From the NCBI GenBank assembly GCA_964474445.1, contig CAYYSJ010000002.1:53610-117609 (forward strand): a stretch of 64,000 nucleotides of DNA, written 5' to 3'. Shown here piece after piece: positions 1-41,822 of the stretch. Position 1 is the stretch's first letter, and the number at the start of each line of letters is the position of its first letter. Under the pieces are notes generated by a model. That model was not told the origin of the DNA. It ran no database searches and saw only the letters and a program-made list of their open reading frames with translations. The position numbers were made by a program, and so were the translations under genes. This DNA comes from an uncultured Gammaproteobacteria bacterium. GTDB lineage: Bacteria; Patescibacteriota; Microgenomatia; Levybacterales; UBA12049.

Positions 1-487
1 AAAACATTGTGATAAATGCGGTCAGTAATGGATCAACAACATAAAAATGAGCTGTTTGAATTGGTAATGTAGAAAGTCCATAGAGTGCACATCCTAACAG
101 CGCAATATTGGAAGAAAACATTCTTTTTCCCAGTAAGTAAATAAAAAGAATTGTTATGACTTCTGCAAAAATGGAGATATATCTTCCAACAAAACTCATG
201 CCACTATAGAGTCCAAGATCTGGAGACCATACTGAAGCAATGCTACTAATACTTTTTAAGAGATAAAGAGGGAAAGACCCATATGCAAAAAAATGTGGGT
301 TGAAAGAACTCATTGGAGAGAAAAATTCTGATAAAGAATGAGGGAGGCTAATTGGTTGAGAAAAGAGAATAATTGCTCTTTCATCAGGGTGAAGATGAAA
401 GTTTGCGTCCCAATTCATGCCATAAAACCTTATGCAAAAAGAAAAGAAAAGAATAAAGGCAAGTAGTATTCTGGCAATATATTTCAT
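1..487 (-). CDS. GT-C fold glycosyltransferase (PMT/ArnT-like, GT39/GT83-type). This is the N-terminal part; the C-terminus lies beyond the window edge. Not in the ORF table because it is truncated.
   Basis: The reverse-strand translation from ATG at 487 reads MKYIARILLAFILFFSFCIRFYGMNWDANFHLHPDERAII.., polytopic membrane. The N-terminus and the HPDE motif parallel the adjacent paralog at 484..2091. Confidence 0.55.
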   Translation of the reverse strand, partial: MKYIARILLAFILFFSFCIRFYGMNWDANFHLHPDERAIILFSQPISLPHSLSEFFSPMSSFNPHFFAYGSFPLYLLKSISSIASVWSPDLGLYSGMSFVGRYISIFAEVITILFIYLLGKRMFSSNIALLGCALYGLSTLPIQTAHFYVVDPLLTAFITMF

Positions 488-2147: not shown

Positions 2148-3416
2148 TTATCTTGTTATGCGGCTTGCAATTTTTTGTCCAAGTTCTATCGCATAATTTG
2201 TCCCTCTATCCCATGGGTATACCTGTTGGATGTTCGCAAGATAAATATTTGCAAGTGGCGTATCAAAAGGAGGCATAATCTTTGAGTAATTAACTGGAAT
2301 AATTGGTTGTGCAAAAGGGGTTTTAAAAATATCAACACCAACCAAATCTTTTTCGTACCCTGGATGAAGAACTTGGAGGATATGATCAAATTCTTTCAGA
2401 ATTTCTTTTTCCGACATTGCAAAGTATGGGTGATTATGGGGAAGATAATTCCCAAGATAGACAAGATGTTCATTATTGTAATGTCTTTTATTCATAAAAT
2501 TTGTATGTTCGACAACAGCCATAACAGGTGAAGCAGGGTCACATATACTCAACCAATATGTATTATCTGTTAAAAATTGTTTTTTAAGACGCAGAACAAC
2601 AGTCATAGCCCCAAGTCCTTCTAATTTTTGTAATTTCTCTTTATAGTCCTGTGGGAGAGAAGGACATAGTTTAAGAAATGGGAAAGAAGGAAGTGTCACA
2701 ATCACTTTATCAAATTCATATTTTTCTTTTCCAACAACAACATAGGGTCTATCTTTTCCAGGTTTTATTTCTGTAACTCCTGCACTGTAGAGAAATGTAC
2801 CACCTTTTTCTTTAATTGCTTTTTCCAACTGTTTAGCAAATAGTAAAAAGCCTCCTCGTGGGTAAGCAAGAGAGGGAGTTCTTTTAACAATACGTGCCCA
2901 AAACCAAGCCAGGGAAATCCTATCTGCAAAGCTACCAAATTTATTTGTTAATTGTGGTTCCCAAATTAACTTATATGCCTTTTCCCCCATTGCTTTAGGA
3001 AGATATTCTGAAGCTTTTACCCTCTCCATCGGTTTCCAGAAAGGGTTAATACGAAGCAATCCAAGTGTTTCAACCATTCTCAGCCTATCCCAAATAGGTA
3101 GTTTTGGAAAAGTCAGAAATGCTGAAGGAGAATCAAGTTGATATATTTTCCCGTCTATAAATACAGATGTTTTTGGACGTTTTATCGTAACAGGGAAATG
3201 AATTTCTTTAGCAAGCGATAGGACTATATTGTCGTTAGTAAACCAGTGGTGGTAGTAACTTTCAAGCGTCCATTCCCATTCTTTTTTTGTGTATCCTATG
3301 GCAAGTCCTCCTGGATTCTGGTCTTTCTCAAATACGGTAACAGAATGTCCCTCTTTACTGAGTGCATATGCTGCTGCGAGTCCTGTAAACCCTGCTCCAA
3401 TAATTCCTATTTTCAT
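2148..3416 (-). CDS. FAD-dependent oxidoreductase (amine-oxidase / UDP-galactopyranose-mutase-like Rossmann fold)
   Basis: N-terminal MKIGIIGAGFTGLAAAYAL..VFEKDQNPGG dinucleotide-binding motif. HHWFTND resembles the Glf HIFHTND motif. 422 aa. Confidence 0.6.
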   Translation of the reverse strand: MKIGIIGAGFTGLAAAYALSKEGHSVTVFEKDQNPGGLAIGYTKKEWEWTLESYYHHWFTNDNIVLSLAKEIHFPVTIKRPKTSVFIDGKIYQLDSPSAFLTFPKLPIWDRLRMVETLGLLRINPFWKPMERVKASEYLPKAMGEKAYKLIWEPQLTNKFGSFADRISLAWFWARIVKRTPSLAYPRGGFLLFAKQLEKAIKEKGGTFLYSAGVTEIKPGKDRPYVVVGKEKYEFDKVIVTLPSFPFLKLCPSLPQDYKEKLQKLEGLGAMTVVLRLKKQFLTDNTYWLSICDPASPVMAVVEHTNFMNKRHYNNEHLVYLGNYLPHNHPYFAMSEKEILKEFDHILQVLHPGYEKDLVGVDIFKTPFAQPIIPVNYSKIMPPFDTPLANIYLANIQQVYPWDRGTNYAIELGQKIASRITR

Positions 3417-18475: not shown

Positions 18476-19571
18476 CAATTTGTTCCCAGGGAAATCCTTT
18501 TCGTCCAAAGTGGCCATACGCAGCAGTCTTTTTATATAGAGGTTTTCGTAAATCAAGTCGTTTAAGAATACCACTTACAGATGTGTCTAAAAGTTCTTTC
18601 ATAAAATGTTTGATAACCTTGTCGCTCTTTTTAGCAGTTCCAAACGTCTCGATGTCTTGCATAACAGGATGTTTGACTCCAATACAGTAAGCAAGTCTCA
18701 CCTCACATTTTTCAGCCAACTTATGGGCAACGATATTTTTTGCTAAAAACCGTGCAGCATATGCTGCAGACCTATCTACTTTTGTTGGGTCTTTTCCAGA
18801 AAAGGCACCACCACCAATTCGTGCATAGCCTCCATATGTGTCAACAACAATTTTTCTGCCAGTTACCCCAGTATCGCTTGCAGGTCCTCCAATGTGCCAT
18901 ACGCTTGTTCCATTGACAATCAGTTGGTCTTTTTTAATAGCAAATCCATATTTTTTGAGAAGTGGTGAAACTACTTTTTGGTACAAATCATGCTCTACTT
19001 CAGGAAGTGTGACTTTCTCATCATGAGGAACGGCAATAACAACTGTAGTAACTCCTATTGGTTTGCCATTGTTATACTCAACAGTTACTTGTGTTTTGCC
19101 ATCTGGTCGAAGATAAGGTATTTTTTTTGATGTTCGTGCTGTATCCAGTTTTTCAGCAAGTCGATGCGCAAGGGTGATGGGGAGAGGCATCAGCTCTGGT
19201 GTCTCGTTACAAGCAAATCCAAACATCATTCCTTGATCTCCTGCCCCTTCATTATCAACACCAACTGCTATTTCAGGAGATTGCTCATGGATATATACCT
19301 CAACAGAAGATTTATAGGTAAAACGGAAAAGAGGATTGGTATATCCCAAGTCCTTTATGACATTTCGTGCGACTTTCTCAAAGTGTACTTTTGCATTAGC
19401 TGTAACTTCTCCGGCCAACACAATTTTTTCTTCAGTCACCAATGTCTCAACAGCAACTCGTCCTTTAGAATCTTCTCTCAGTACAGCATCCACTATCGCA
19501 TCGCTGACCTGATCACAAATCTTATCAGGGTGTCCACTACAAACTGACTCTGATGTAAAAATACTGCTCAT
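18468..19571 (-). CDS. metK: S-adenosylmethionine synthetase
   Basis: MSSIFTSESVCSGHPDKICDQVSDAIVDA..GAGDQGMMFGFA..GGGAFSGKDPTKVDRSAAYAAR. Start at the internal Met, because the upstream 67 codons of the table ORF are the riboswitch leader. Confidence 0.93.
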   Translation of the reverse strand: MSSIFTSESVCSGHPDKICDQVSDAIVDAVLREDSKGRVAVETLVTEEKIVLAGEVTANAKVHFEKVARNVIKDLGYTNPLFRFTYKSSVEVYIHEQSPEIAVGVDNEGAGDQGMMFGFACNETPELMPLPITLAHRLAEKLDTARTSKKIPYLRPDGKTQVTVEYNNGKPIGVTTVVIAVPHDEKVTLPEVEHDLYQKVVSPLLKKYGFAIKKDQLIVNGTSVWHIGGPASDTGVTGRKIVVDTYGGYARIGGGAFSGKDPTKVDRSAAYAARFLAKNIVAHKLAEKCEVRLAYCIGVKHPVMQDIETFGTAKKSDKVIKHFMKELLDTSVSGILKRLDLRKPLYKKTAAYGHFGRKGFPWEQIVK

Positions 19572-19607: not shown

Positions 19608-19745
19608 AAAAAAACCTCTCTTTCGAGAGGTACATGTTTGTTCTACATCTGGAACCACATTTTCCTCTCGGATTCTGGGCACCGTGTCAATAAGGTCGGT
19701 TGCCGGATAGGTCTGGCCTATCTCTCTGAATGTTCTAGGATAAAG
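19608..19745 (-). ncRNA. S-box/SAM-I-like riboswitch leader with an intrinsic terminator upstream of metK
   Basis: The minus-strand RNA contains a hairpin GATAGG-CCAGA-CCTATC, then GGCAACC..(14 nt)..GGUGCC, then AAUCC and GAGAGG. The terminator is CCUCUC-GAAA-GAGAGG + U7 (plus coordinates 19608..19630). The aptamer GAGAGG can pair alternatively with the terminator strand CCUCUC. Confidence 0.5.
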
Positions 19746-39738: not shown

Positions 39739-40101
39739 ATGCATATCTTTTGGGGAAAAGTACGAAGTGGTGATAAAAGGGGACGAGAGTTAGGATATCC
39801 AACTGCAAATATGTTTCTTCATAAACATTTGGGAGAAGGAGTCTTTGTCTCAGAAGTACAGGTTGATGGAGAGTGGTATCCTGCGTTGACTTTCGTTGGT
39901 AAAGCCAGGACGTTCGATAAGACTGATTATAAAGCAGAGAGTTGGCTTATTGATTTCGAAGAAGATCTTTATGGGAAAATGCTTACTGTAAAACTCTTAA
40001 AAAAACTACGAGGAAATAAAAAATTTGGTTCTGCTAACGATCTAATTGTACAGATGAAACAAGATGAAAAAGACGCACGAGAGTATTTTAGAAATTGTTA
40101 G
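39739..40101 (+). CDS. Monofunctional riboflavin kinase (RibF C-terminal-domain homolog only)
   Basis: GKVRSGDKRGRELGYPTANM ... E.WL.DF is the RFK domain signature. Only 120 aa, with no FAD-synthetase domain. Confidence 0.7.
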   Translation: MHIFWGKVRSGDKRGRELGYPTANMFLHKHLGEGVFVSEVQVDGEWYPALTFVGKARTFDKTDYKAESWLIDFEEDLYGKMLTVKLLKKLRGNKKFGSANDLIVQMKQDEKDAREYFRNC

Positions 40102-41039
40102 ACTCTCACTGCTTCAACAGCTAATGCTTCCGACTCTTTCTTCAGTGGCCTGGTAATTTGATAAATAGCAAAGAGGAGTATTACCACACCCAAAATTTGT
40201 GTTGGAGAAAGCACCTTGTGATACAAGAAGTAATCAATAAAAATAGCAGAAGCTGGCCATACTAATTCACATAGTGTTGTAATTCGTGCTGGAGTACGCT
40301 TAAGACCATAATAATAAAAACTAAGTGCGACCAAGCCAGTTGAGAAGGTAATAAGAAGAAGAGTAATAAATTGTTGAGGGTTAATTGCAAAGAGCGCTTT
40401 ACCTTGATGACCAGCAAACACAAACCCAAGTGCAAAGATTGGTGCGAAGAAATATCTCATAGCAACTCCAGTAAGAAAGGTAACTTTATTTAATACATAT
40501 TTACTCAAGGCGGTACTGGACCCCCACATAAGTCCTGCTCCAATTGCCAAAAGTCCTGCGAAAAGTGTCCCACTCCCTGTTGCAAGGTTAACACGAAGGT
40601 TAGGGAACGTGATAAGGTATGCTGCAGTAAGAGCAACTACCGCCCACCAAATGAAATTCTTGGTGATTTTTTCTTTCAGAAGTAGAGCTGCTGTTGCAAT
40701 AGCCCAAAGAGGTTGTAGTTGCTGCTGAAGCAACACGACAACAGAATAGGAAGAGTAGTTAATTTGCTGGAGTGCACTGGTATACAGAATTGTTCCAAGA
40801 GCACCGGAAAAGAGAGAGACAGTGCCTATTGCTAGCCATTCTTTTCTGGACATTTTCTTCACATCTTTTATCCAGGCAAAAGCGACAAATAACAGAATAA
40901 CTGCACCGAGTGCGTGTTCGTAGAAGACGATAACTGAAGGAGGGAGGCTGTAGAGACTGATACGTAAAAGTCCATCAAAACTCCACAAAAGAGCAGTGAT
41001 GATAATAAATAGTGGTCCAAAGGCTAAAAGTCTTTTCAT
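40098..41039 (-). CDS. EamA/DMT-family transporter
   Basis: 313 aa with 10 TM helices, duplicated EamA-like halves. Confidence 0.7.
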   Translation of the reverse strand: MKRLLAFGPLFIIITALLWSFDGLLRISLYSLPPSVIVFYEHALGAVILLFVAFAWIKDVKKMSRKEWLAIGTVSLFSGALGTILYTSALQQINYSSYSVVVLLQQQLQPLWAIATAALLLKEKITKNFIWWAVVALTAAYLITFPNLRVNLATGSGTLFAGLLAIGAGLMWGSSTALSKYVLNKVTFLTGVAMRYFFAPIFALGFVFAGHQGKALFAINPQQFITLLLITFSTGLVALSFYYYGLKRTPARITTLCELVWPASAIFIDYFLYHKVLSPTQILGVVILLFAIYQITRPLKKESEALAVEAVRV

Positions 41040-41056
41040 GATTAGTTTTGTCTACA

Positions 41057-41079
41057 AAAAATACCCCTCGTCGGGGTAT
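41057..41079 (-). terminator. Intrinsic terminator (minus strand) ending the 41422..41634 transcript
   Basis: The minus-strand RNA reads ..CAUACCCC-GACGA-GGGGUAUUUUUU. The plus-strand sequence is aaaaaatacccctcgtcggggtatg. Confidence 0.5.
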
Positions 41080-41421
41080 GTCAAAAAACTCAAAATAGTC
41101 AGTATTTCAGAGAATCAGACATACTGAAACTCCAGTTTACTGAATATTTTGGATTATCTTTCTTACTCTTCTTAAAAGGAAAAACATTTGACGTTTTTAT
41201 CGATTTAAAAAGTCGCATTTAATGCGATTCCGACTATACGGCCGCTACCAGAATTACACTGGTTCTTCCTGCAAATTCAAGAACTTTTATCCTGAGCTTG
41301 TCGAAGGATCGTGGAGTTTATCATGTACCGTTCTGGTATAGATTTCACCACCGATAAGGATTTTCACCTAACCCCGAAAGATATATTGAGAATACACCAT
41401 GAAAAATGCAATAGCAATAGG

Positions 41422-41634
41422 TTATCCTCTTCGTAATGATGATTTCCTTGGGTTTGCTCCAATTGCATTAATTGCTGCTATATCCTCCTCGCCGAGACGT
41501 ATTTCATTAAGACTTTCAGGTGGTATTATTCCAAAGGGGACCAAAACAGTTCTAATTGGAAGCAAAATGAGCGCTCTAACACCAACTTTCAATCTTCTCC
41601 AATTAGTCAATTGTTCTACTTGTTCTGTTGTCAT
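41422..41634 (-). CDS. Small hypothetical protein (70 aa) with a strong SD
   Basis: AAGGTGG lies 7 nt upstream of the ATG. The protein is MTTEQVEQLTNWRRLKVGVRALILLPIRTVLVPFGIIPPESLNEIRLGEEDIAAINAIGANPRKSSLRRG. It is preferred over the overlapping + ORF 41399..41665, which lacks an RBS. Confidence 0.4.
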   Translation of the reverse strand: MTTEQVEQLTNWRRLKVGVRALILLPIRTVLVPFGIIPPESLNEIRLGEEDIAAINAIGANPRKSSLRRG

Positions 41635-41785
41635 ACATTTTCACCCACCTTTCAATGTCCAATAGTTTTTTATTTACACCTATATTATACTCTTATTGTT
41701 AAACTTGTAGGCATAGTTTTTCCTTTAGTCTCATAAGAGAAAAATGAATCTTTTATTCTCCTTAAGGTTTTTGTTAAATCAGGTC

Positions 41786-41822
41786 TTGACAATTGTTAGC
41801 AGTGTTGTTATATTAGTGCTAA
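41786..41822 (+). promoter_or_regulatory. hrcA operon promoter (TTGACA-17-TATATT) with a near-perfect CIRCE operator TTAGCAGTG-N9-TAGTGCTAA
   Basis: -35 at 41786..41791, -10 at 41809..41814. The CIRCE inverted repeat at 41796..41822 lies 20 nt upstream of the hrcA ATG. Confidence 0.85.

Follow-up and report, generated by a model that had tools for sequence, protein, structure and literature searches.

A probable FMN riboswitch with a two-hairpin insertion in J6/1 precedes a candidate riboflavin importer gene in a Patescibacterial genome

The stretch of 64,000 nucleotides (nt) studied here, which we call the window, is part of contig CAYYSJ010000002.1 (positions 53,610 to 117,609 of the forward strand; GenBank assembly GCA_964474445.1) from an uncultured bacterium of the Patescibacteriota lineage. 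At 41417..41055 on its minus strand, it carries what we regard with good confidence (probability of roughly 0.88) as the promoter and 5' leader of an EamA/DMT transporter gene, a leader that forms a riboswitch sensing flavin mononucleotide (FMN) and acting by transcription attenuation. The aptamer belongs to the FMN riboswitch family RF00050, is conserved with covariation upstream of transporter orthologues and is complementary to its own terminator; this copy would bind FMN with the insertion in place. The element is ordinary in kind, a standard FMN riboswitch for riboflavin uptake, and atypical in anatomy. All positions follow the numbering of the window, and those of the riboswitch, the neighbouring open reading frame (ORF) and the transporter are on the minus strand. 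The locus is laid out as follows:

41422..41634, minus strand: ORF of 70 amino acids (aa) that starts with ATG and ends before the riboswitch promoter
41389..41417, minus strand: putative sigma-70 promoter, read from the sequence
41155..41383, minus strand: FMN riboswitch aptamer (RF00050 match), bounded by the P1 5' strand and the distal P1 3' strand, with the J6/1 insertion included
41091..41151, minus strand: AU-rich spacer hairpin of ~61 nt between aptamer and terminator, present in the minimum free energy (MFE) and centroid structures
41055..41079, minus strand: intrinsic terminator (terminator scan)
40098..41039, minus strand: EamA/DMT transporter of 313 aa with two EamA stretches (Pfam EamA, 6.5e-34)
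39739..40101, plus strand: monofunctional riboflavin kinase of 120 aa, convergent and outside the riboswitch transcript (Pfam Flavokinase, 4.7e-33)

The genes hrcA-grpE-dnaK lie upstream of the riboswitch locus on the opposite strand. An independent Logan assembly (L052) is identical to the window over all 871 nt, which excludes an assembly artefact.

An earlier sequence-only reading had treated the tract as an unusually long 3' region of the 70-aa ORF, closed by a terminator belonging to that ORF. Neither assignment stands, as a putative promoter of its own follows the ORF stop, relatives without the ORF keep the tract before the transporter gene, and the terminator is the expression platform of the riboswitch. 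The reading was right that no further ORF follows: none of 60 aa or more occurs in the 382-nt gap up to the ATG at 41039, where there are only mechanical ORFs of 34-41 aa.

Identity of the aptamer

The RF00050 covariance model matches 41385..41212 over its full length (positions 1-138 of 138) with 61.9 bits and an E-value of 1.7e-13 in a search of 801 nt, or 1.3e-11 when the whole 64-kb window is searched. The other sub-threshold Rfam matches in the tract (rli38, a PyrR site, CRISPR-DR, snoRNA and miRNA families, AdoCbl-II and SAM/SAH) are noise, with E-values of 0.7-8. Six helices, P1-P6, are arranged around one junction and are supported by covariation, and the aptamer ends 115 nt before the ATG of the EamA transporter gene, with the terminator in between. 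The parts of the aptamer are as follows, all but the first taken from the cmscan alignment:

41376..41383, minus strand: P1 5' strand, UAUCUUUC, forming eight perfect base pairs with 41162..41155 (pair probability 0.88-1.0)
41371..41375, minus strand: J1/2, GGGGU, with the phosphate-binding guanines (equivalents of G9-G12 of Fusobacterium nucleatum); also the antiterminator core, and invariant in relatives
41230..41370, minus strand: P2-P6 core
41369-67/41359-57, minus strand: P2
41353-52/41244-43, minus strand: equivalents of C31-G84 and G32-C83
41351-48/41314-11, minus strand: P3, with an extended loop
41310-09, minus strand: J3/4, GA
41308-06/41269-67, minus strand: P4, with a long apex
41266-64, minus strand: J4/5, AGA
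41263-59/41251-47, minus strand: P5
41242, minus strand: G in the position of A85
41241-39/41232-30, minus strand: P6

The cmscan alignment places P2-P6 well, leaves P1 unpaired and shows long insertions in the P3 and P4 loops, and the single-sequence MFE structure contains all of the aptamer helices. Strong structure in the tract had been noticed from the letters and is confirmed: its 386 nt fold with -102 kcal/mol, compared with -80.8 +/- 5.0 kcal/mol for dinucleotide shuffles (z = -4.25, 0 of 100 as good). The accompanying remark that the tract is locally GC-richer holds for the aptamer core (42.9% versus 37.7% for the window) but not for the whole leader (36.1%) or the insertion (28.3%).

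The sequence-only reading had left the choice among an embedded small RNA, a cis-acting element and a decayed gene. The second is what was found, in the form of an FMN riboswitch, which it had not considered, and there is no sign of a decayed gene. Three of the checks that it proposed led to this result: the Infernal search against Rfam gave the full-length match below the gathering score, the comparison with related genomes found the same RNA element upstream of transporter orthologues, and folding recovered the helices, for which relatives show covariation.

Conservation and covariation in related loci

These data raise the question of how widely this leader is shared. The relatives compared here, designated by L-numbers, are fetched loci (19 genomic and 26 metagenomic) together with a number of contigs that encode the closest proteins. 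In 37 Patescibacteria loci, the transporter orthologue is immediately preceded by an FMN aptamer; these comprise six genomic loci above the gathering score, five genomic loci below it, 20 metagenomic loci and six found by pattern match. The aptamer was present in all 20 metagenomic loci scanned, in ten of them below the threshold, and the pattern match recovered it in L048-L051, L045 and, truncated, in L021. Matches below the gathering score make up 15 of 31 in Patescibacterial leaders, and all sub-threshold leaders whose sequence was examined contain loop or junction insertions. No aptamer was detected at an E-value threshold upstream of the distant homologues L012 and L013 (47-49% identity), nor, at the gathering threshold only, upstream of L016, L017 and L019 (34-39% identity).

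In a helix alignment of 19 insertion-free relatives, pairing extends to 97.9% of the cells, with compensatory changes at 16 of 28 pairs. The covariation score of 0.529 compares with 0.183 for shuffles and was reached by none of 500, and slid controls are 39-53% paired. An alternative register of P6 proposed by RNAalifold (CGAC/GUCG) was dropped in favour of that of Rfam, in which alone the change in L027 is compensatory.

One additional piece of evidence comes from the strain-level relative L020. The two sequences are identical over 221 nt that take in the last third of the 70-aa ORF, the promoter and the beginning of the aptamer, whereas divergence is 4-5.5% in the spacer and in the first two-thirds of the ORF.

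Ligand pocket

The FMN pocket is formed by A48, A85, A99, G10, G11, G32, G62 and G84 (PMC6298564), with the base triples G11-(G84-C31) and G62-(G32-C83) and with A99-G104 as the J6-1 segment (PMC12219259). When this numbering is mapped onto the window via the Rfam consensus rather than a structure alignment, the equivalents are GGGG at 41375-72, CG-G at 41353-51, GA at 41310-09, AGA at 41266-64, CG at 41244-43 and AA at 41229-28. The guanines of J1/2, G32/G33, the GA of J3/4, the AGA of J4/5 and the equivalents of G84 and A99 are all retained; the guanines contacting the ribityl and phosphate moieties (G10, G11, G32, G62 and G84 equivalents) are thus present together with those of A48 and A99. 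After removal of the insertion in silico, the aptamer agrees with the 19 relatives at 52 of the 53 columns in which these do not vary, and the sole deviating column, a change of GUGUAA to GUGAAA in L2, agrees with the general Rfam consensus.

Positions 85 and 98 vary jointly. Across distinct leaders, the combination A,G occurs 22 times, G,A four times, A,A once and G,G never. The G,A group comprises five loci, namely, the window (41242/41229), L001, L021, L024 and L050, the last of which repeats the segment of L021. The pattern suggests an isosteric swap in a non-canonical purine-purine pair flanking P6, beside the position that stacks on the ligand.

The insertion in J6/1 and the distal P1

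The feature that sets this copy apart is an insertion in J6/1, which displaces the strand that closes P1:

41167..41226, minus strand: 60-nt insertion in J6/1, between AAU (41229..41227) and GUAA (41166..41163), absent from the closest relatives
41227-22/41218-13, minus strand: hairpin A, UCGCAU-UAA-AUGCGA (fold)
41212-04/41176-68, with inner pairings 41201-00/41180-79 and 41197-91/41187-81, minus strand: hairpin B, a long AU-rich stem (fold)
41155..41162, minus strand: distal P1 3' strand, GAAAGAUA, an orthologous 8-mer following GUAA, the 3' part of J6/1

Hairpin A, at 41227..41213, had been picked out beforehand with a UUA loop; the hairpin is there, and its loop reads UAA. The insertion starts just after the A99-equivalent adenine, and the strand closing P1 lies 214 nt beyond its partner, 60 nt further downstream than usual. 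All eight pairs between UAUCUUUC and GAAAGAUA form in the unconstrained MFE structures of both the aptamer and the whole leader, and L050 and L021 use the same 8-mer, in the context AAGAAAGAUAA, as their P1 3' strand. In these two, which are among the closest relatives, and in others, GUCGGAAU is followed directly by GAAAGAAAGAUAA, whereas in the window it is followed by the 60 nt and then by GUAAGAAAGAUAAUCC. The insertion is absent from all seven closest relatives (L021, L048-L051, L022 and L001, with 77-85% transporter identity), which read GGAAUGAAAGAAAGAUAA or similar. A search of the window found no other copy of the 60 nt; there is no target-site duplication at the insertion, and AAGAAGAGU and AAGAAAGAU are similar at seven of nine positions. 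A covariance model that we built from the 19 insertion-free relatives matches the window with 53.4 bits, deleting P1 rather than bridging the insertion. The distal P1 of the window copy is therefore proposed from thermodynamics, the orthology of the strand and analogy with other lineages.

Another important question is whether such insertions occur elsewhere in the family. L024 (74% transporter identity) has two short GC-rich hairpins at exactly the J6/1 site of the window, L037 has an insert there, and L045 resembles at this site a group of leaders that we term Saccharibacteria-type. All members of that group (nine distinct leaders, 47-60% identity) share the arrangement GUCGGGA-[CYYGC-UUCG-GCRRG]-AG-[variable hairpin]-AGAAA-AGGAA-N6-12-AUG. 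Unguided RNAalifold folding of the nine leaders yields a distal P1 (UCCU/AGGA) that encloses P2-P6 and both hairpins. In hairpin A, two of five pairs are compensatory and pairing is 100%; in hairpin B, the values are four of seven and 95%; P1 shows one compensatory pair; and the overall covariation score was reached by 0 of 500 shuffles. The covariation of P1 across the insertion thus belongs to the Saccharibacteria-type group and not to the window copy itself. Single-sequence MFE structures of L024, L047 and L011 likewise contain eight helices. As J1-2 and J6-1 form the opening of the FMN binding pocket (PMC12219259), J6/1 would fit as a site from which extra helices can project outward. The loop of hairpin B in L011, L014, L015, L018, L035, L038, L043 and L047 is usually GGGAG or GAGG, resembling a Shine-Dalgarno (SD) sequence, ~15-20 nt before the real SD in the P1 3' strand; these loops may be a standby ribosome site or a coincidence.

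The periphery of the aptamer has also been expanded elsewhere. L2 and L6 of the FMN aptamer normally make a tertiary contact. L002 has an insertion of ~65 nt in the P2 loop (2700..2800), and hairpins occur in the P6 loops of L008 (2791..2840) and L025 (1429..1500); these three copies score at or below the Rfam gathering score. An extended P3 is found in about half of FMN riboswitches (PMC6298564). The two-hairpin insertion in J6/1 was not found in the Rfam consensus or in the open-access literature subset searched, which is weak evidence of novelty, and that subset held nothing relevant on FMN riboswitches of Patescibacteria, the candidate phyla radiation (CPR) or Saccharibacteria. It is conceivable, at somewhat less than even odds, that Patescibacterial FMN riboswitches include an undescribed functional sub-architecture with eight helices (the J6/1 hairpins and a distal P1) in at least three lineages, namely, the window genome, L024 and the Saccharibacteria-type group, and that the EamA protein is the main unrecognised riboflavin importer of these bacteria with reduced genomes.

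Terminator, putative promoter and predicted switching

The putative promoter consists of a -35 hexamer TTGCTA (41417..41412), a 17-nt spacer and a -10 hexamer TATTCT (41394..41389), which ends 5 nt before P1; the -35 hexamer starts 5 nt after the stop of the 70-aa ORF. The same geometry is found in L048-L051, where TTGACA, 17 nt and TATGCT, TATTCT or TATTAT are followed after 5 nt by (T/C)AT(C/T)CTTTCGGGG. The promoter scan did not list this promoter. Most simply, the leader would be an independent transcript starting at ~41384.

The strong terminator noted in the sequence-only reading is real. Its stem at 41079..41061 has 7 bp (four of them G-C) and the loop GACGA, and U6 follows up to 41055. 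In AUACCCC-GACGA-GGGGUAU, the 5' half and the start of the loop, ACCCCGA (41077..41071), are complementary to UCGGGGU (41377..41371) at the 5' edge of the aptamer. A terminator is present in 16 relatives and almost always reads (A/C)CCCCGA..., with its 5' half and first loop bases complementary to the invariant aptamer segment UUUCGGGGU; from this conserved complementarity we propose an antiterminator.

To find the best duplex partner of the terminator 5' half, each whole upstream leader was scanned in a set of 15 leaders that includes the window. That partner was the P1-5'/J1-2 segment in 14 of the 15 and the adjacent J1/2-P2 segment in the fifteenth. Duplex energies range from -10.4 to -14.7 kcal/mol, which is equal to or better than those of the terminator hairpins and better than nearly all shuffled controls; in the window, the duplex has -13.0 kcal/mol versus -10.6 kcal/mol for the hairpin. 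The unconstrained fold of a nascent RNA ending at 41068, at which point the 5' half and loop of the terminator have emerged but not its 3' half, is the antiterminator conformer (MFE -87.6 kcal/mol), with 41377-71 base-paired to 41077-71 at the expense of P1 and P2. The MFE structure of the full-length leader comprises aptamer and terminator (-94.0 kcal/mol).

These folds suggest the following model. When FMN is scarce, UCGGGGU, that is, the end of the P1 5' strand with J1/2, would pair with ACCCCGA of the terminator 5' half, the terminator would be blocked and the transporter transcribed, and the kinase encoded next to it would phosphorylate the riboflavin taken up. At high FMN levels, the ligand would bind the six-helix junction and lock J1/2 and P1, leaving ACCCCGA free, so that the AUACCCC/GGGGUAU hairpin with its U6 would form and transcription would stop before the gene. 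The predicted polarity is that of an off switch. The spacer hairpin (41151..41091) could be a pause or timing element; relatives with the terminator also carry a non-homologous hairpin between aptamer and terminator.

Leaders without a terminator are found in L022, L025, L028, L030, L033, L024 and the Saccharibacteria-type group. In these, the P1 3' strand is purine-rich (AAAGGAAG or AAGGAA) and lies 5-12 nt before the start codon, an arrangement in which the formation of P1 would sequester the SD directly.

The transporter and the riboflavin kinase

The transporter has 1294 homologues. The best 120 of the 1294 are listed as 68-100% identical, and every source name among these 120 belongs to the Patescibacteria group (Levyibacteriota, Roizmanbacteria and Microgenomates). 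NCBIfam returned only generic DMT models, far below their cut-offs. The riboflavin kinase gene converges on the 3' end of the transporter gene, and the two genes are convergent in at least 12 other loci as well. We consider this EamA/DMT protein a candidate riboflavin importer, and it may represent a distinct DMT clade recruited for riboflavin import. The public NCBI record (P0002, on a 283,663-bp contig) gives the protein as 251 aa from an internal Met start; the 313-aa form starting at 41039 is backed by orthologues and by an independent Logan gene call (P0122).

The 70-aa ORF and its spacer

The 70-aa ORF is present as described in the sequence-only reading, ATG start included, and AAGGTGG indeed lies upstream of it, at 41651..41645, although 10 nt before the ATG and not 7. 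The 'perfect' SD made of this motif carries little weight: the motif exists, but SD-like motifs precede only 4 of the 35 long ORFs of the window, and in L020 it has mutated to AAGATGG. The proposed search with the peptide did not turn up a gene family. There is no Pfam or NCBIfam match, and 5.8 billion proteins contained one homologue, 93% identical and from L020; L052 holds an identical copy, and the ORF is absent from the other 40-odd loci. Compared with L020, the ORF shows six non-synonymous and three synonymous changes (pN/pS 0.62 from these nine changes only; 4.2% nucleotide divergence), while the adjacent hrcA has none and four, respectively (0.55% divergence). With neither homologues beyond strain level nor purifying selection, it is probably a spurious reading frame in a lineage-specific spacer; we consider a functional gene unlikely, though the chance is not remote.

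The spacer between hrcA and the riboswitch measures ~100-200 nt in L049, L023 and L004, relatives in which hrcA is likewise the upstream neighbour, 457 nt in the window and ~450 nt in L001. Since it is far shorter in the first three, the ORF lies in lineage-specific DNA. Such DNA appears to accumulate at this spacer (window 41420..41785, and L001). In L001, the spacer (107..406) contains a 100-aa ORF on the opposite strand without a Pfam match; it also starts with MTEQV, and tblastn and BLASTP ruled it out as a relative of the 70-aa ORF. On the far side, upstream of hrcA-grpE-dnaK, a CIRCE-like repeat TTAGCAGTG-N9-TAGTGCTAA (41796..41822, plus strand) overlaps a near-consensus promoter TTGACA-17-TATATT (41786..41814), and the repeat and promoter element are also found upstream of hrcA in L001 and L049.

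Weighing the interpretation

Several observations weigh against an FMN riboswitch that controls the transporter. The RF00050 score lies 4.3 bits under the Rfam gathering score of 66.2, and at the gathering threshold Rfam reports nothing at this locus. Neither the Rfam model nor our own aligns P1 across the insertion, and no relatives were found that are close enough for covariation in hairpins A and B of the window, since the L020 sequence breaks off within the aptamer and L052 does not differ from the window. The equivalent of the stacking adenine A85 is a G (41242). The terminator scan also picked up hairpin A, with CUUUUU behind it, as terminator-like, and transcripts could end prematurely there, within the aptamer. 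The antiterminator would have to span ~300 nt, and no SD precedes the ATG of the transporter. Two of these points have an explanation. The J6/1 insertion and the long apical extensions of P3 and P4 cost Rfam score, and with a score below the cut-off, default annotation misses the riboswitch. The start without an SD is normal for the window, where just 4 of the 35 ORFs of at least 250 aa have an SD-like motif at most 20 nt from the first ATG, with starts taken mechanically.

Two alternatives accept the aptamer and differ on its function. In one, the riboswitch would be decaying and unresponsive to its ligand, with the pocket broken by the insertion and hairpin A with its U-run serving as a constitutive or leaky terminator. 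The low score, the absence of the insertion from the seven closest relatives, its position within the J6-1 segment that FMN binding normally orders (PMC12219259) and the terminator-like call for hairpin A followed by CUUUUUAAAU would all fit. However, the near-complete set of invariant positions (52 of 53) and the perfect 8-bp P1 with its orthologous strand speak against decay; the promoter and the 5' part of the aptamer show no substitutions compared with L020, next to a spacer that differs by ~5%; and same-site insertions of two hairpins are conserved with compensatory changes in lineages whose transporter SD depends on that P1. Hairpin A is also weak (6 bp, three of them G-C), and the U-run behind it doubles as the 5' strand of hairpin B. 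We consider decay improbable. Slightly less probable still is an FMN-class aptamer with an altered ligand (riboflavin, lumichrome or another flavin), which the G at the A85 position and the occurrence of known rare variants upstream of transporter genes (PMC6298564) would favour. Those variants exchange phosphate- and ribityl-binding guanines for adenines (PMC6298564), whereas the window keeps all of them; the change of A85 to G is always accompanied by that of G98 to A, like an isosteric purine-purine swap; and the terminator logic is that of an off switch beside a gene for riboflavin kinase.

The remaining alternatives deny that the tract is a leader. A long structured 3' untranslated region, or a small RNA derived from the 3' end of the 70-aa ORF and ended by its own terminator, could draw on the strong structure of the region and on the lack of a terminator between the ORF stop and the aptamer, by which a transcript of the ORF would read into the leader. 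It is very improbable, as 37 loci have this RNA before the transporter gene while the ORF is shared only with a strain-level relative and an identical assembly, has no homologues beyond these two and evolves neutrally, and as a putative promoter of conserved geometry follows directly after its stop. Lowest of all, and close to negligible, stands a decayed protein-coding gene between the ORF and the transporter. A non-coding gap of 382 nt is conspicuous in a compact genome, but 229 nt of it are aptamer and the remainder is spacer hairpin and terminator, which have counterparts in relatives; of the mechanical ORFs in the gap, the one tested has no Pfam match, and no six-frame protein search of the tract was made.

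Repeats and other features of the window

The P4 apex at 41289..41307 (minus strand) is a 19-mer, CCTTCGACAAGCTCAGGAT, which also forms the P6-loop insertion of L025 (1438..1456). Exact copies occur in 49 IMG/VR contigs (L053-L101), with a chance expectation of <1, as well as in 124 records of plasmids of Alpha- and Betaproteobacteria, Bacteroidota and Cyanobacteria, in unannotated DNA and with up to 15 copies per record. The copies often have an inverted copy 10-40 nt away and are sometimes in tandem, with the conserved block (a/g)TCCTTCGACAAGCTCAGGATGA. Neither an Rfam family nor a paper covering this 19-mer was found. It looks like a small palindromic repeat, comparable to repetitive extragenic palindromic (REP) sequences or miniature inverted-repeat transposable elements (MITEs), that crosses phyla and has landed in riboswitch loops, and other riboswitch insertions may have arisen likewise.

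In many ORFs of the window, the ATG is preceded at a distance of a few bases by a TATAAT-like hexamer (e.g., 20194, 17312, 16308, 60084 and 34407), which suggests that leaderless mRNAs or mRNAs with very short leaders are frequent in this organism. A further riboswitch, of the SAM-I/IV family (RF01725, 47.8 bits, above the gathering score), is located at 19624..19738 (minus strand), directly upstream of an ORF for S-adenosylmethionine (SAM) synthetase (metK) with a likely start ATG at 19571.

Significance and comparison with known systems

FMN aptamers that insertions push below the threshold have a practical consequence, namely, that default pipelines leave both the element and its regulon unannotated. 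In many Patescibacteria, a riboswitch-controlled EamA transporter beside a stand-alone riboflavin kinase points to the flavin supply route of these small-genome organisms, and the EamA protein would be a testable riboflavin-importer candidate outside the eight families tested so far. J6-1 is part of the mouth of the FMN pocket and provides the adenine pairing partner of the isoalloxazine ring; natural aptamers in which this segment accommodates an additional 30-60 nt of helices could be useful for studies of folding order, for engineering and for drug targeting of the class. If the insertion is truly functional, it may adjust when P1 closes with respect to ligand binding, or hold the ribosome-binding site at a distance from the aptamer core.

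Among known riboflavin transporters, RibN was reportedly described by Garcia Angulo et al. in 2013 as a membrane permease with two EamA domains. The transporter of the window resembles RibN of Rhizobium leguminosarum (RL1692) and Vibrio cholerae in having two EamA stretches and an upstream FMN riboswitch, a comparison of domain content and not of sequence. It differs in belonging to a Patescibacterial family. In alpha-proteobacteria, RibN is preceded by an FMN riboswitch, and its orthologues have been reported only in Proteobacteria (PMC4418817). ImpX of F. nucleatum and Desulfitobacterium hafniense, for which transport was demonstrated by complementation of an Escherichia coli ribB mutant, is described as a distant homologue of eukaryotic RFT2 and was found only in species with riboflavin biosynthesis (PMC4418817); compared by description and not by sequence, it shares with the window a monocistronic transporter gene under an FMN riboswitch. 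The leaders of ypaA/ribU, ribM, ribN and impX place riboflavin uptake under FMN-riboswitch control (PMC4418817), and the riboswitch of the window would follow the same logic.

The rare variant FMN-class riboswitches (subtypes 1 and 2; Atilho et al. 2019, PMC6298564) likewise have an FMN-like fold, lie upstream of transporter genes and depart from the consensus. In these, the phosphate- and ribityl-contacting guanines are mutated, the conserved binding G mostly to A, and at least some are on switches (PMC6298564), whereas the window and its relatives have G throughout at these positions, and the predicted logic of the window element is that of an off switch.

The nearest system remains the FMN riboswitch itself, the RFN element of RF00050 (Bacillus subtilis ribD and ypaA; F. 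nucleatum impX, PDB 3F2Q). The window element shares with it the P1-P6 junction with its conserved junction nucleotides, the extended P3, the position upstream of a probable riboflavin-supply gene and a terminator/antiterminator arrangement predicted to work as an off switch. It departs from it in the 60-nt two-hairpin split of J6/1, which brings to eight the number of helices leaving the junction, in the long P4 apex, in the G at the A85 position together with A for G98, and in an antiterminator drawn from the 5' edge of the aptamer (P1-5'/J1-2) over ~300 nt.

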